The notes: a model not told the origin generated them from the sequence alone. A stretch of 64,000 bases of DNA from an uncultured Bacteroidales bacterium (GCA_905235135.1 CAJOKR010000005.1:64142-128141), one strand, 5' to 3'. Counted from the first letter of the stretch, positions 12,386 through 63,097 are shown. Numbers and translations are program-made.

Positions 12386-12412
12386 GTAGAGACGCAAAAT
12401 TTTGCGTCTCTC
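12386..12412. repeat. REP-like 28-bp palindrome, AATT-core subtype
   Basis: gtAGAGACGCAAAATTTTGCGTCTCTc; positions 12388-12411 form a perfect palindrome. Confidence 0.95.
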
Positions 12413-12510
12413 CGTACGCTGTCTCTATTTTTCTTTAAACTTCTGCCCCTTCTGCAAGTCCGCACCAAATAATGCACGATATTATGTCGGCTTTTTTTCT
12501 GAAAATTTCG

Positions 12511-12518
12511 TACCTTTG
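12511..12518 (+). promoter_or_regulatory. -7 promoter box TACCTTTG
   Basis: Matches TAnnTTTG, 20 nt upstream of the ATG at 12539. Confidence 0.6.
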
Positions 12519-12538
12519 CGGCTTAAAAAATACGACCT

Positions 12539-15193
12539 ATGAACTTGGTTAAGACACTGAAAAATAAGTGGTTACATAAATCTTTCGTGCTGACGGCGAT
12601 GATGTTGCTGTCGGCGGTGTGCGTGATGGCACAGCCCCCGGGCGGCGGCTTCCCCGGTGGAAGACCCCCGGGAGGATTCCCCGGCGGACGCCCTCCCGGC
12701 GACCGTGGAGACTGGAACCCGCAGTCATCCCAGCAGGTTCCTCAGGTGAAACAGAAGAAGAAGGTGCGCGAGGGTTCCACATTTAAGGTGGTGGGCCTCC
12801 TGCGCGATTCCATTGCCGGCACCCCGTTAGCCTACGCCAACGTCGCGGTGCTCGATGCTGAGGACTCTTCCCTCATCAAGGGTACTTCCGCCAACGGCAA
12901 CGGCTACTTCGAAGTCGATGGCATCCCCCAAGGCGAATGCATCCTCCGTGTGTGGTGCTTCAACTATAACCCGCGGCATATCCCTTTCACCGTGAAAAAC
13001 AACACCAATTTGGATGTGATCAAGCTCATGCCGATTTCCACCACCCTCAACGAGGTCACCATCAAGTCGGAGAAGCCCTTGTACGCCCAGGACGGCGAGA
13101 AACTCATCTACAACGTCAGCGAGGATGCCTCCATCCAGACGGGTACCACCGAGGATGCGTTGCAGAATGCGCCTGGTGTGGAGGTCGATGTGGAGGGCAA
13201 TATCACCCTTCGCGGCGTATCCAGCGTGGAGATTTGGATCAACGACAAACCCTCCAAACTTACGGAGGAAAACCTTAAAACGTACCTCCAAACCTTGCCC
13301 GCCAATGCCCTGGAACGTATTGAGGCCATTACCAACCCGTCGGCCAAGTATGCCACTGACGCTGAGGCGGTTATCAACATCGTCACTTCGGCGCACGTCA
13401 AGAGCAACCAGTTTGTCAGCTTCGGTGTCAACGGCTCCAACCAGCCGTTCATCTCCCCCTGGGTCAGCTATATGTGGACGAAGGAAAAGCTGAGCATAAA
13501 CTTCTTCTTGGCAGGACGTTACAATGCTCGCCGCAATACGGATGAGACGACCTCCTACCAGCGCCGCGATGCGGAAACGGAGGGCGATTACGATACCACA
13601 TGGTCGGCCCAGACCTCCCAGATTGACATCAACCGCAGAGGTGGCGGCAACTTCTTCCTCGGCATCAACTACGAAATTGACTCCACCAACGAGATTTCCG
13701 TCGATGCTGGCGGTTTTTACAACTACAATGCCACCCGCCTGACCAAAGCTGAAGACCAGACCTACTACGGCATCTATGAGGATGAACCCTACGACCAGAA
13801 TTACATCGACACCACCCATAGCAAGACCAAAGGACAGTCCATTTTCACGCACGCGGGGGTCGATTACACCAAAAAGTTCGACAAGAAAGGTCACAATCTG
13901 CGTATCAGTTTGAACACGCGCTTCAATCACAATGCCAGCGACCAGTGGTATAACCGTTTCTACGATACCTATTACGACCTCGACGAGCACCGTTATCTGC
14001 TGACGCGCAACTATGGTTTCGGGGGCAGCTTGGATGCCCGCTACAACCGTCCCTACAGCGAAAAAGGGGAGATGAGTTACGGTCTTCGTGTCGATCAATC
14101 CTCAATGAACAATGATTACAAACGTTACAATGATACCCTCGGCTTGCTGGTGGATACGTTGCGTACCTACCATTTCAACGGCAGTTCGACCAACCTGAAC
14201 GGCGATGTGAACTGGACGCATCGTTGGGGCGGTTTCACCCTCAGCACGGGCTTGGGCCTCGGGGTGTTGCGTGATGCTTACGAATATATCAGCGATATGC
14301 CGTTTGCGGATGCCGGCGCGCCCATTTACTTTTCGGCACGGCCTTCCATCCACCTTTCCTACCGTACCGAGAGCATGCACAACTTCAAACTCAACTACTC
14401 CATGCGCATGTCCCATCCGGGTGAGGAAGATGTGAGCACCTTCCGTCGTTATGGCGACAACAGCTATTCCACCGGTAACCCGACGGTGAAGAGCGGTTTC
14501 ACGCACAGCATGGAAGCCGGCTGGCAGAAGTATTTCACCAAATTCGGCAATGTCGGTGTGGAACTTTACGGGCGGATGAGCACGAACGAAATCAGCTCGC
14601 TGACCGACTCCAAATACGATGAGTTCCTGGACCGTGTGATCAGCTATTCCACACCTTACAACCTCGGTTCCTCATGGCGTTACGGTGGATCGTTGAATGC
14701 CACCTACCGCCCGACGGGCTTTATTAACCTGCGTCTTTATGCCAACGTTTATGATTACGGTTACAAGATGGCCTATATGCGTGACGGCGAGATGCAGTAT
14801 GACCAACGTGACAAGTGGTCATGGAGTGTGCGTCTGAATTTCTGGGCCAAGGCTTTCGACTGGCTGCAGTTCACCGCTTCGGGATTCTATAATTCCCCGA
14901 CACTCAGCCTGATGAGCGAGCGCAAAGCCCGTTATGCGCTGAATTTCGGTATCCGCAGCGACTTGTTCAAACGCAAACTGTCCATCTACGTCAATGTGCA
15001 GGACATCTTCAACTGGGGTGGCAGATTTGGTTCCGGTTCCGAGAACACGAACCCGTACTACCTGAGCAACAGCACCAGCAAGATGCTCAACAGCCGTTAC
15101 ATCGCGGCGGGCATCACTTTGCGTTTCGGCAAGATGGAGTTGGAGAGCAAGGCGCAGCAGACTGGCGAGAGCGAGTCGGGCGAGACGATGTAG
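12539..15193 (+). CDS. TonB-dependent receptor-like outer-membrane beta-barrel protein with a carboxypeptidase-regulatory-like N-domain (884 aa)
   Basis: It has a signal peptide, a low-complexity GGFPGGRPP repeat, then a CarbopepD_reg-like region (FKVVGLLRDSIAGTPLAYANVAVLD), a plug-like region (ITLRGVSSVEIWINDKP) and a beta-barrel C-terminus. Confidence 0.75.
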   Translation: MNLVKTLKNKWLHKSFVLTAMMLLSAVCVMAQPPGGGFPGGRPPGGFPGGRPPGDRGDWNPQSSQQVPQVKQKKKVREGSTFKVVGLLRDSIAGTPLAYANVAVLDAEDSSLIKGTSANGNGYFEVDGIPQGECILRVWCFNYNPRHIPFTVKNNTNLDVIKLMPISTTLNEVTIKSEKPLYAQDGEKLIYNVSEDASIQTGTTEDALQNAPGVEVDVEGNITLRGVSSVEIWINDKPSKLTEENLKTYLQTLPANALERIEAITNPSAKYATDAEAVINIVTSAHVKSNQFVSFGVNGSNQPFISPWVSYMWTKEKLSINFFLAGRYNARRNTDETTSYQRRDAETEGDYDTTWSAQTSQIDINRRGGGNFFLGINYEIDSTNEISVDAGGFYNYNATRLTKAEDQTYYGIYEDEPYDQNYIDTTHSKTKGQSIFTHAGVDYTKKFDKKGHNLRISLNTRFNHNASDQWYNRFYDTYYDLDEHRYLLTRNYGFGGSLDARYNRPYSEKGEMSYGLRVDQSSMNNDYKRYNDTLGLLVDTLRTYHFNGSSTNLNGDVNWTHRWGGFTLSTGLGLGVLRDAYEYISDMPFADAGAPIYFSARPSIHLSYRTESMHNFKLNYSMRMSHPGEEDVSTFRRYGDNSYSTGNPTVKSGFTHSMEAGWQKYFTKFGNVGVELYGRMSTNEISSLTDSKYDEFLDRVISYSTPYNLGSSWRYGGSLNATYRPTGFINLRLYANVYDYGYKMAYMRDGEMQYDQRDKWSWSVRLNFWAKAFDWLQFTASGFYNSPTLSLMSERKARYALNFGIRSDLFKRKLSIYVNVQDIFNWGGRFGSGSENTNPYYLSNSTSKMLNSRYIAAGITLRFGKMELESKAQQTGESESGETM

Positions 15194-15217
15194 AGACGTG
15201 CCATGGCGCGTCTTTAC
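15190..15217. repeat. REP-like 28-bp palindrome, CCATGG-core subtype
   Basis: GTAGAGACGTGCCATGGCGCGTCTTTAC. The TAG at 15191-15193 in the left arm is the stop codon of the preceding gene. Confidence 0.9.
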
Positions 15218-15253
15218 CTACAGACGACGTGAAGAACAACAAACGTTAAACGA

Positions 15254-62350: not shown

Positions 62351-62828
62351 TCAACCTTTTAAGTTTCTGTTTGATACGTTGTATTTTTGTTCCTACGTTC
62401 GTGACGCTGATACCTAAGATCTCCGCCATTTCAGTATGGGACTTCTCATCCAAATAGAGAAAGATAAGCGCCTGATCCTCTTGGTTGAGTTGTGCGATGA
62501 GCTCATACATCTGATCCGTCAGGTTCTCTTCAGCTGAATTGTCCTTGACGCGTTCCTCCACCTCCGAAAGCGATTGTAATTTGCCAGATCCTAACTTTCT
62601 CACCTGGGAGATAGCCACGTTCAAGGCCACGCGGTAGAGCCAAGTAGATGGCTGGCACTCCGGTCGCTTCACATAGCGTGGGTAGCTTTTCCACAGATTC
62701 AGCACAATCTCTTGGAATAAGTCCTCTTCGCATACGGCACTACATAGCGCGGCATAGTAGCGGCATACCACGCACAACTTTTGCCGGTTCTCCTGCACCA
62801 GTTCCAGAAATTGTTCCTCGGTCGTCAT
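62340..62828 (-). CDS. ECF-type RNA polymerase sigma-70 family factor (162 aa)
   Basis: Region 2 reads DLFQEIVLNLWKSY...STWLYRVALNVAISQVRK. Region 4 reads LIFLYLDEKSHTEMAEILGISVTNVGTKIQRIKQKL. Confidence 0.85.
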   Translation of the reverse strand: MTTEEQFLELVQENRQKLCVVCRYYAALCSAVCEEDLFQEIVLNLWKSYPRYVKRPECQPSTWLYRVALNVAISQVRKLGSGKLQSLSEVEERVKDNSAEENLTDQMYELIAQLNQEDQALIFLYLDEKSHTEMAEILGISVTNVGTKIQRIKQKLKRLNDE

Positions 62829-62900
62829 TCTGCTACTTGTTTTTATTGATTAATCGCGATGAAGCGACAAAAATCACATCGTAGTGAATTTTTCATACGG

Positions 62901-62908
62901 CAAAAATA
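62901..62908 (-). promoter_or_regulatory. -7 promoter box (TATTTTTG on minus strand) for the ECF sigma operon
   Basis: Matches TAnnTTTG, 72 nt upstream of the ATG at 62828. Confidence 0.5.
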
Positions 62909-62914
62909 CAAATA

Positions 62915-63043
62915 GTTGCGTGTTACAACACGCTGCCTACCTCACCGCACCGTTCACCCCACACCGCGCTCCACTTCGTTACGCTTGGTGTGGGGTTATT
63001 GAGATTTCGTGCTTTCAGCACGAGGGAAATCGCGAGGCGAAAC
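62915..63043 (-). repeat. Three-hairpin structured repeat, right copy (inverted relative to 59089-59210)
   Basis: Hairpins are GCGTGTT/AACACGC (62918-62933), CCCCACACC/GGTGTGGGG (62957-62995) and CGTGC/GCACG (63008-63022). A hand alignment to the reverse complement of the left copy shows colinear blocks. Confidence 0.8.
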
Positions 63044-63069
63044 GGTGCGATGCTCGGAATCACCGCCTC

Positions 63070-63097
63070 GTAGAGACGCAGGGCCGTGCGTCTCTAC
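63070..63097. repeat. REP-like 28-bp palindrome, GGCC-core subtype
   Basis: GTAGAGACGCAGGGCCGTGCGTCTCTAC. Confidence 0.95.

Follow-up and report, generated by a model that had tools for sequence, protein, structure and literature searches.

Double-foot REP-like palindromes in a 64-kb stretch of Bacteroidales DNA and their association with RAYT-like genes

A 64-kb stretch of DNA from an uncultured Bacteroidales bacterium (the whole of which is called the window below) carries a short palindrome many times over, raising the question of whether these repeats are host elements, acting for example on the ends of messages, or elements that move. Our analysis favours the latter: with a probability of roughly 78%, they are double-foot REP elements, i.e. 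non-coding palindromes that belong with the HuH-Y1 transposases of TnpA_REP subclass 2.4 (RAYT group 4).

A palindrome family with covarying cores

A census of the window with the pattern GTAGAGACG-N10-CGTCTCTAC, allowing up to 3 mismatches, gave 12 matches compared to 0.00 expected from 100 dinucleotide-preserving shuffles. The full copies start at 12386, 15190, 31280, 33836, 39526, 40673, 47226, 49866, 53022, 53783, 58929 and 63070, and there are two half copies, CGTCTCTAC at 42065-42073 and CGTCTCTAT at 53062-53070. The original prediction counted "at least 11" full copies while listing 12; all 12 were found, the two isolated arms are real and most starts are unchanged, with corrections of 1-2 nt for two copies (39527 to 39526 and 58931 to 58929) and of 1 nt for both arms. 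The cores form three classes: class A, CAAAATTTTG (copies 12386, 39526, 40673 and 58929), class B, TGCCATGGCG (15190, 31280, 33836 and 49866, and also 47226 in the opposite orientation) and class C, resembling CACGGCCGTG (53022, 53783 and 63070). The features are as follows.

12386..12413, unstranded: full copy with a class A core (GTAGAGACGCAAAATTTTGCGTCTCTCC), between two divergent genes, 11547-12257 (minus) and the outer-membrane receptor gene 12539-15193 (plus), in their 5' region
15190..15217, plus strand: full copy, class B, 36 nt upstream of a PfkB kinase gene
31280..31336, plus strand: full copy, class B (31280-31307); two right-arm pieces, GCGTCTTTGTAACCT and GCGTCTTTAC, come after it in tandem
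33836..33863, plus strand: full copy, class B, degenerate (2 mismatches), in the convergent gap between an AhpC gene (33327-33773, plus) and an S46 peptidase gene (33866-36034, minus)
39526..39553, plus strand: full copy, class A, in frame within the LpxK coding sequence
40673..40700, unstranded: full perfect copy, class A, in the convergent gap between a purine-nucleoside phosphorylase gene (39823-40647, plus) and gene 40739-41998 (minus)
42065..42073, minus strand: isolated arm CGTCTCTAC, whose reverse complement provides the TAG stop of gene 42070-42621 (minus)
47226..47253, minus strand: full copy, class B in opposite orientation (GAAGAGACGCGCCATGGCACGTCTCTTC), 16 nt past the stop of an FMN-binding gene, 47270-47881 (minus)
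49866..49893, plus strand: full perfect copy, class B, translated within a GH97 glycosidase coding sequence (47793-50156, plus)
53022..53070, unstranded: full copy, class C (53022-53049), with the isolated arm CGTCTCTAT (53062-53070)
53783..53810, unstranded: full perfect-armed copy, class C (core CACGACCGTG), 11 nt past the stop of an adenylosuccinate lyase gene, 53822-55090 (minus)
58929..58956, unstranded: full copy, class A, left arm degenerate (3 mismatches), then an 11-bp tandem array (58975-59034)
63070..63097, unstranded: full perfect-armed copy, class C (core CAGGGCCGTG), in the 5' region of a pyruvate:ferredoxin oxidoreductase gene

The dominant form is (T)GTAGAGACG-Y-N8-R-CGTCTCTAC(A) with a dyad-symmetric core, a unit of 28 bp, or 30 bp with the weak T...A extension, in which both strands bear a 5' GTAG foot, paired with CTAC. 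Twelve copies of 28 bp in 64 kb conform to the size and abundance that define the GTAG superfamily (palindromes of 20-40 bp in many copies). Each arm contains a BsmBI-type CGTCTC site, a feature pointed out earlier that is trivially true. Single strands of the copies form a 4-nt loop on a 12-bp stem, with folding energies of -10.7 to -12.5 kcal/mol and z scores of -5.5 to -7.4; neither 14-bp half is itself a hairpin, there is no spacer, and the loop is palindromic, the dyad symmetry passing through the central 4 nt.

Covariation was assessed in 83 distinct copies, comprising the 12 from the window and the rest from other genomes, the arms of the latter being fixed by the search pattern. Each of the five core pairs is represented by 3-5 standard pair types (Watson-Crick or G-U), with changes on both sides in 25-52 sequences per pair. 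The covariation score is 0.367 compared to 0.106 for shuffled sequences, and none of 500 shuffles reached the observed value; 95.7% of cells are paired, a share that falls to 25-52% if the partners are slid. The four foot pairs are each formed in 79-82 of the 83 sequences, a figure to be read with the fixed arms of the non-window copies in mind. The original prediction that the cores vary while staying self-complementary, with selection on pairing and not on core sequence, is thus borne out by the covarying cores.

Placement relative to genes and turnover among relatives

Of the 12 full copies, eight are situated at 3' ends or between convergent genes, two in 5' or divergent regions and two within genes, a distribution in keeping with the mostly extragenic location, between co-directional or convergent ORFs, of GTAG-superfamily repeats. 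The earlier description of copies as mostly near stop codons holds for the seven full copies that are within about 40 nt of one, and not for the two inside coding sequences or the two in 5'/divergent regions; the copy at 33836 is only 2 nt from the stop codon of the S46 peptidase gene. In four window genes the TAG stop is itself supplied by an arm: the GTAG heads of copies 15190 (TAG at 15191-15193) and 31280 terminate the outer-membrane beta-barrel gene 12539-15193 (plus) and the cation-efflux gene 30294-31283 (plus), and, besides the arm at 42065, the reverse complement of arm 53062-53070 provides the stop of the uracil phosphoribosyltransferase gene 53067-53723 (minus). Both intragenic copies are in frame. 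The one in LpxK is translated as H-RDAKFCVST-I within a 33-nt (11-aa) insert that is missing from many orthologues, and the one in GH97 lies inside a segment of 47 aa to which nothing corresponds in solved GH97 structures. At the last copy, ORF 63009-63845 (in the pyruvate:ferredoxin oxidoreductase region) has a Pfam match that begins at residue 111.

Several copies adjoin tandem repeats. The copy at 12386 follows an 11-bp array (12325-12373), and the copy at 58929, with its own 11-bp array, is an inverted duplicate of the composite 12290-12413; the heptamer array GGTTTAA x6 (53736-53779) directly precedes the copy at 53783.

In eight related species we found both filled and empty sites, and differing cores at one and the same site. 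Ranked by identity, LpxK orthologues that have the 11-aa insert are intermingled with ones that lack it, and the site orthologous to copy 40673 has other cores or is empty in related species. One orthologous site has identical arms around different cores in the window (CAAAATTTTG) and in two relatives, L131 (TGGTGCACCG) and L132 (CGGCGCGCCG); the L131 orthologue of copy 47226 has a similar core. At the 31280 site, strains L123 and L126 are 29 bp shorter and have a simple palindrome. The insertion polymorphism that had been proposed as a test is therefore present between related species, while strains of 96-99.9% identity have every copy fixed in place and give no sign of very recent movement.

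RAYT-like genes and the spread of the family across phyla

Identical arms occur in at least 120 stretches from Bacteroidota, Cyanobacteria (including Nostocales), Chloroflexota (Anaerolineae), Acidobacteriota, Ignavibacteria, Planctomycetota, Spirochaetota, Desulfobacterota and others, with about 17 hits to the arm pattern expected by chance in 596 Gb. Chance hits would lack paired cores; in these copies 84-97% of cells are paired.

Clustering of the ORFs from 120 loci picked by the palindrome only yielded one recurrent small protein family, RAYT-like, in six of them (L012, L013, L035, L054, L071 and L078), the gene being either flanked by copies (L035 on both sides, L054, L013 and L071) or bearing them in frame (L012, L054 and L078). 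About 90% of 120 RAYT-like homologues bear a palindrome-encoded peptide, and two such peptides derive from one palindrome read in two different frames. In an independent sample of 80 loci fetched by RAYT homology only, a double-foot palindrome is found inside the gene or within 400 bp of it in 48, with densities of 0.95/kb inside, 0.39/kb nearby and 0.02/kb further off; the 12 copies per 64 kb of the window amount to about 10 times the background around these other RAYT loci.

The family matches the NCBIfam model 'REP-associated tyrosine transposase' with E values of 1e-9 to 1e-18. Its scores are 37-67 bits on NF047646, under the curated cut-off of 80, and a borderline 17-23 bits on Pfam Y1_Tnp (cut-off 23); this clade is a divergent one, with in-frame inserts that split the match. 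In the PDB, only E. coli TnpA_REP (entry 4ER8, E 1.2e-6) is matched significantly, and the JGI label on homologues is 'REP element-mobilizing transposase RayT'. The features that identify a RAYT, namely the HuH motif, a conserved W, the catalytic Tyr and a polar metal ligand about 4 residues on, are all present and their motifs align to 4ER8; H82, H84, W147, Y168 and N172 are invariant, and Q148 is at least 90% conserved. No RAYT gene was found within the 64-kb window; the source genome presumably encodes one elsewhere.

The closest known systems are the double-foot REPs of subclass 2.4, described in Cyanobacteria, Bacteroidetes and scattered phyla, a host range that matches the one found here, with in-frame REPs inside tnpA_REP (Quentin, Siguier, Chandler and Fichant, 2018; PMC6006769). 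The resemblance extends to the long hairpin with 5' GT[AG]G and 3' C[TC]AC ends and to the linked Y1 HuH protein with WQ and YIxNNP motifs (PMC6006769), which appear here as WQ and NYIxNNP or EYIxxNP; the variable insert between beta3 and alphaC in subclass 2.4 (PMC6006769) compares with a variable insert directly after the HuH motif in our family. The differences are that the HuH motif is NHLH or DHLH here, in contrast to the reported NH[IFV]H consensus, that the palindromes are far denser in the window, and that a dominant sequence form is defined here whereas the text of PMC6006769 gives no consensus. Subclass 2.6 TnpA_REP also occurs in Bacteroidetes (PMC6006769). Bertels et al. (2017) reported that abundant 16-mers flanking group 4 RAYTs are only weakly associated with them. 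Since double-foot REPs had already been described for Bacteroidetes and Cyanobacteria, the suggestion that the family was undescribed is overstated.

The original prediction had linked the GTAG/CTAC heads to the RAYTs of Proteobacteria. The link to RAYTs stands, since RAYT-like genes adjoin or contain the palindromes in other genomes; the proteobacterial REP type does not. Like classical REPs and REPINs (PMC3733652; PMC3116915), the repeats are short palindromes with a GTAG head, mostly downstream of ORFs, sometimes donating the TAG as a stop codon or lying in frame within genes, with compensatory stem changes and a linked RAYT. Classical REPs, however, have an unpaired GTAG at one end and an asymmetric loop (TY, CMA) (PMC3733652), and REPINs consist of two REP hairpins with a spacer between (Bertels and Rainey, 2011; PMC3116915), whereas in our family both strands have a 5' GTAG that pairs with CTAC, no spacer is present, a half is not a hairpin and the loop is palindromic; we therefore rejected the classical GTAG-superfamily type. 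MITEs were likewise rejected, since MITEs are 70-300 bp long with terminal inverted repeats and target-site duplications, the unit here being 28-33 bp and no duplication being visible at the filled and empty LpxK junctions, where divergence limits resolution. The small dispersed repeats (SDRs) of Nostoc, said to have been presented by Elhai et al. in 2008, are reportedly 21-27-nt imperfect palindromes with compensatory changes, often within heptamer tandem repeats and with nested copies, for which RNA intermediates were reportedly proposed and no transposase assigned. By this description, SDRs resemble our family in their compensatory palindromes and in cyanobacterial hosts that overlap those of the arm matches. 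Rickettsia palindromic elements (RPEs) are longer, about 100-150 bp, and of the CGTC or other types; we know of no RAYT link shown for them. They share with our family the character of small palindromic repeats that are inserted in frame into genes and translated (PMC3733652).

Mobile palindromes, host elements or copying errors

Could the repeats instead be host regulatory RNA elements, terminators or stabilisers of mRNA 3' ends, whose repetition reflects convergent or duplicated function and not mobility? The stable hairpins and their proximity to stop codons would suit such a role, as would the T.G pair at positions 10/19 of class B, which, read in the direction of the neighbouring gene, is a U.G wobble in four of five cases, and an action at the RNA level has been argued for many REPs (Di Nocera et al.; PMC3733652). 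The anatomy does not support the terminator role originally proposed: no window copy is followed by a T-run, which led us to reject intrinsic (Rho-independent) terminators, two copies are translated as part of essential or enzymatic genes and two are in 5' or divergent regions. Identical arms in unrelated phyla and within RAYT genes in different reading frames, together with orthologous sites that are empty in sister species, make a primary RNA function quite unlikely, while some 3' ends may have acquired a secondary, exapted one. Lower still in our estimate is the notion that a host protein, be it a regulator, a nucleoid protein or part of a restriction-modification system, binds the palindromes as a dimer on double-stranded DNA, with one subunit per 14-bp half. 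It would account for the perfect dyad symmetry, including the central 4 nt, and for a type IIS site in each arm; it sits badly with several unrelated cores in one genome, with copies in coding sequences and at 3' ends and not at promoters, and with a distribution that follows a transposase family and no regulator.

The alternative we take most seriously, while still considering it improbable, dispenses with a transposase: template-switching or gene conversion at hairpin sites would use the 9-bp arms as microhomology, the RAYT link being incidental or regulatory. The replacement of entire cores between identical arms at one orthologous site would follow naturally, as would the tendency of copies within one genome towards a common core class (the window, L213), the arm-derived tandem duplications (the 31280 locus, L015, L018, L094 and L105) and a palindromy that continues through the loop. 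This last property is one for which hairpin selection alone gives no explanation, and it counts against the reading we prefer. Template-switching nevertheless leaves unexplained the first arrival at new sites, coding sequences included, as a fixed 33-nt unit, the 20- to 50-fold enrichment at RAYT genes and the conservation of the feet across phyla, and excision followed by re-insertion at a preferred target accounts for core replacement equally well.

We therefore favour double-foot REPs whose agent of movement is inferred to be a RAYT, with a single-strand mechanism modelled on that of IS200/IS605 TnpA and of TnpA_REP from E. coli. Once single-stranded, for instance at a replication fork, the element would fold into its 12-bp stem, and the RAYT would recognise foot and stem and cleave and rejoin there, so that copies could be excised seamlessly, inserted or exchanged. 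Because only the feet and the pairing would matter, the core could vary freely provided that it remained complementary. To our knowledge, no subclass 2.4 RAYT has been reported to act biochemically on a substrate of this kind. Other points against this reading are the lack of a RAYT gene in the window, the scores below cut-off and the NHLH or DHLH motif of the RAYT-like family, the weak association reported for group 4 RAYTs and the fixation of copies among close strains. What the host experiences looks like a by-product of which positions tolerate a copy: most copies lie just past gene ends, some shortening the gene by a few codons and donating the TAG of GTAG as its stop, and a few sit in frame in tolerant protein loops, as in LpxK and GH97. 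The window, apart from a few details, is a clear but largely ordinary example of selfish palindromes of a type described in 2018.

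Palindrome copies in the window and their gene context

Our search showed that the window holds 12 copies of the palindrome GTAGAGACG-N10-CGTCTCTAC at up to three mismatches, where dinucleotide-preserving shuffles give an expectation of 0, and that the single arm occurs 36 times at up to one mismatch, against 8 expected. Three core classes are found side by side in the window (CAAAATTTTG, TGCCATGGCG and CACGGCCGTG-like), and a representative of each is predicted to fold as single-stranded DNA into a 12-bp stem with a 4-nt loop (-10.7 to -12.5 kcal/mol, z -5.5 to -7.4). Copy search, core classes and folding all agree with the original prediction of a family of 28-bp palindromes with conserved GTAG-headed arms and variable, self-complementary cores; the copies it listed are real, although some of their positions were 1-2 nt off. 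At gathering thresholds no Rfam family matched the palindromes; elsewhere in the window there were only two tRNAs and one match to the Acido-Lenti-1 motif (20026-20080, minus strand, 41.2 bits against a gathering threshold of 37), lying between two plus-strand genes. We know of no occurrence of this motif family in Bacteroidales.

Palindrome copies and arm pieces in the window (full copies by start position)
12386: full copy, in a 5' or divergent region
15190: full copy
31280: full copy, followed by extra right-arm pieces
33836: full copy
39526: full copy, in frame within the LpxK coding sequence, translated H-RDAKFCVST-I
40673: full copy
42065-42073: half copy
47226: full copy
49866: full copy, in frame within a GH97 glycosidase coding sequence
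53022: full copy
53062-53070: half copy
53783: full copy
58929: full copy
63070: full copy, in a 5' or divergent region

Two more exact GTAGAGACG 9-mers lie within coding regions without a partner arm (34361-34369 and 55251-55259) and may be chance matches, of which about 0.5 would be expected, or decayed half copies.

Gene context was read from the ORF listing and Pfam scans of the window. The copy in the GH97 gene falls inside a 47-residue stretch without equivalent in solved GH97 structures, and in four genes (12539-15193, 30294-31283, 42070-42621 and 53067-53723) the TAG stop codon is donated by the GTAG head or by a half copy. Most of the remaining copies lie from a few to about 40 nt beyond stop codons; for copy 58929, the nearest upstream stop is 466 nt before. 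The terminator role that the original prediction had called compatible with this proximity does not hold as the main explanation, since no window copy has the T-run behind it that marks a canonical intrinsic terminator, and some copies lie inside genes. At certain 3' ends the copies may act as regulatory RNA, but this cannot be what chiefly explains them either, and the CRISPR, MITE and operator readings were ruled out on spacing, size and context. REP heads that give TAG stops and REPs within ORFs are both documented (PMC3733652), and the window copies thus behave typically for REPs. The same source describes classical GTAG REPs with the GTAG unpaired at one end and with asymmetric loops, in which the window palindromes differ.

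Core pairing across genomes and an associated RAYT-like protein

An exact-arm scan with one genome per species returned at least 120 stretches, and the hosts among the matches listed include Bacteroidota, many Cyanobacteria, Anaerolineae, Acidobacteriota, Ignavibacteria, Planctomycetota, Spirochaetota, Desulfobacterota and others. The 128 copies among these listed matches carry 73 different cores, almost always self-complementary; for each of the five core pairs, 84-97% of cells are Watson-Crick paired. Across 83 distinct sequences, every core pair occurs as several standard pair types (Watson-Crick or G-U) with two-sided changes, and the covariation score of 0.367, compared with 0.106 in shuffles, was reached by none of 500 shuffles. 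Position -1 is T in 53% of the copies among the matches listed, so that the palindrome extends weakly to 30 bp. In 46 of the 73 distinct cores the four bases at the centre, where the hairpin loop forms, read as a palindrome of their own, against 1 in 16 expected (p about 5e-37), an unusual property that goes beyond what hairpin stability alone explains.

All-against-all ORF clustering over the 120 palindrome-selected loci yielded one recurrent small protein family, present in six loci from Bacteroidota. An HMM confirmed it: among six-frame ORFs of the window and of loci L001-L132 from other genomes, it matched in these six loci only, and neither in the window nor in about 35 cyanobacterial loci. 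The family has the N-terminus NKYRIxSxRxxxWDYxxxGxYFIT, a HuH motif (MPNHLH), WQ and a C-terminal YIxNNP, and the residues H82, H84, W147, Y168 and N172 are invariant in its alignment, giving the HuH / Tyr / Tyr+4 layout of TnpA_REP. It matches the NCBIfam 'REP-associated tyrosine transposase' model with E-values of 1e-9 to 1e-18, yet under the model's cut-off, and Pfam Y1_Tnp at a borderline level; its sole significant PDB sequence match is E. coli TnpA_REP (4ER8, E 1.2e-6), and homologues carry the JGI name 'REP element-mobilizing transposase RayT'. The genes encoding this RAYT-like protein are flanked by palindromes, and copies also lie in frame within them. About 90% of the best 120 homologues have VETHGRASL(Q/P) in the linker between HuH and the tyrosine and a few have RDARPCVST instead; both peptides are GTAGAGACGCACGGCCGTGCGTCTCTAC read in two different frames, showing that the DNA is conserved and not the peptide. 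Degenerate tandem copies ring this linker palindrome. The recurrence of the frame-switched palindrome at the same place in the gene (homologues P0121-P0240), across proteins 47-94% identical to the query, suggests that the hairpin, as DNA or RNA, serves the RAYT gene itself in cis.

In an independent sample of 80 metagenomic loci, fetched by RAYT homology alone (35-64% identity), 48 had a double-foot palindrome in the gene or at most 400 bp away from it, and palindrome density was 0.95 per kb within the gene, 0.39 in its vicinity and 0.02 farther off. The feet were GTAGAGACG in most of these loci and GTAGGGGCG, GTGGAGACG or others in some lineages, and such lineage-specific feet suggest that foot and enzyme co-vary. 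Subclass 2.4 of TnpA_Y1, which corresponds to RAYT group 4 of Bertels et al. (2017), has been tied to 'double foot' REPs with 5' GT[AG]G and 3' C[TC]AC (Quentin, Siguier, Chandler and Fichant, 2018; PMC6006769), and this description agrees with our independent findings on the palindromes and the associated protein, except that the HuH consensus is NHLH or DHLH here and NH[IFV]H in the reported subclass (PMC6006769). Group 4 was described as weakly associated with repeats (Bertels et al., 2017). Literature text searches with the 9-mers GTAGAGACG and CGTCTCTAC brought up nothing but primers and unrelated sequences, those with the encoded peptides had no result, and the motif is absent from the supplements of Di Nocera (2013).

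Turnover at fixed sites and neighbouring tandem arrays

In ten same-species contigs of 96-99.9% nucleotide identity every copy is in place, with no presence/absence difference; the sole change, at the 31280 locus, is a 29-bp duplication of an arm. The insertion polymorphism for which the original prediction had proposed comparing relatives appears between species, as filled and empty sites, and not among these strains. Among LpxK orthologues (64-97% identity), those that have the 11-aa insert are interspersed with those that lack it, and we compared this site and one downstream of the PNP gene at the DNA level over eight related species.

State of two sites in eight related species (sequences are those at filled sites; L-numbers are loci from other genomes)
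Source; LpxK site, in frame; site downstream of the PNP gene
Window; CGAAATTTTG; CAAAATTTTG
L213; CAAAATGTTG; CAAAATGTCG
L214; CGATGAATCG; no copy
L215; decayed copy; CGGCACGCCG
L216; CGATTAATCG; no copy
L217; empty; no copy
L131; empty; TGGTGCACCG
L132; empty; CGGCGCGCCG

A filled LpxK site has 33 nt more than an empty one, made up of one base, the 28-mer and AAYA. Between compared sites the flanks are about 80% identical and the arms identical, and 9 of 10 core positions differ, which implies either that the core was replaced as a block, or that a copy disappeared and a new one arrived at that very junction. Heptamer arrays stand in place of the palindrome downstream of the PNP gene in the three species without a copy (L214, L216 and L217).

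Tandem arrays with units of 7-8 bp (CTATTGC, ACGGTTAC, GCCAATA, GGTTTAA and AATGAAG) occupy many intergenic gaps and look similar to cyanobacterial STRR repeats.

Arrays of 7-8-bp units in the window
24076-24105
25799-25837
26493-26540
43602-43628
53736-53779
55129-55159

A specific attachment of short tandem repeats to the palindromes was rejected, there being no enrichment over non-coding background: an array lies within 40 bp of 23 of 167 copies (13.8%) and of 211 of 2037 random non-ORF positions (10.4%), the excess appearing only against all positions (3.4%). Some arrays are clearly arm-built. Other genomes have long tandem arrays of whole or partial palindromes plus spacer (L071, 6196-6424 and downstream of 5614; L105, 7642-7763; L094, 3442-3499), one example being 'CCGTAAAGACGCACGGCCGTGCGTCTCAACG...' repeated beside a RAYT gene, so that REP copies can undergo local amplification in addition to dispersal. 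The window also has two inverted copies, 46.6 kb apart and 82% identical, of a composite of roughly 130 nt (12290-12413, plus strand; 58929-59060, minus strand). Its components are ACACGAAAT..., a tandem array of 11-bp units (ATCGGACTTAC x4-6) and a palindrome of class A (core CAAAATTTTG), and it could be a larger mobile unit or an inversion substrate. A separate 48/96-bp tandem repeat (27467-27667, 2-3 copies, 77-93% matches) sits inside the long minus-strand ORF 26735-27979 and presumably encodes a repetitive protein segment.

Maintenance of the family

The palindrome family is real, well defined and of an already described kind (PMC6006769); the REP/RAYT interpretation of the original prediction, which knew of no formal description of the family in Prevotella-like genomes, was essentially right. 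The best explanation, based on association and with no RAYT gene found in the window, is a non-autonomous REP family that would be kept up by a subclass 2.4 RAYT working on the folded single strand, the recognised features probably being the feet and the pairing, with the core left free. This explanation so far leaves aside the palindromic loop and the in-place turnover of cores; template switching or gene conversion could contribute to core replacement and to the arm-derived tandem duplications. A bolder reading, which we consider rather improbable, is that of one pan-bacterial REP lineage in which the 9-bp feet are fixed and the core is a freely exchangeable cassette with dyad symmetry extending through the loop, resident copies being overwritten in place rather than only gained or lost. 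If this were true, the subclass 2.4 RAYT would work as a site-specific 'editor', exchanging hairpin cores among sites that already hold a copy. Its editing might also give rise to the 7-11-bp tandem arrays, which take turns with palindromes at orthologous intergenic sites and fill the RAYT's own linker as well; this would link the palindromes to cyanobacterial heptamer (STRR) and SDR repeats.

For the annotation of Bacteroidales MAGs, RDAKFCVST-like short peptides and genes ending in ...GTAG are to be read as repeat footprints and not as conserved protein features, and the concrete consensus provides a search pattern for an element type described only in general terms in the literature. Exact protein look-ups for the window gave only MAGs labelled 'Bacteroidales bacterium'. 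The source lineage, an uncultured member of the Bacteroidales from rumen or gut, carries the element at an unusually high density, and this density, together with the universal consensus, the dyad symmetry through the loop and the core swapping at fixed sites, makes the family worth specialist attention. With feet identical across phyla and cores that turn over at fixed sites, it offers a tractable system for finding out what group 4 RAYTs do.
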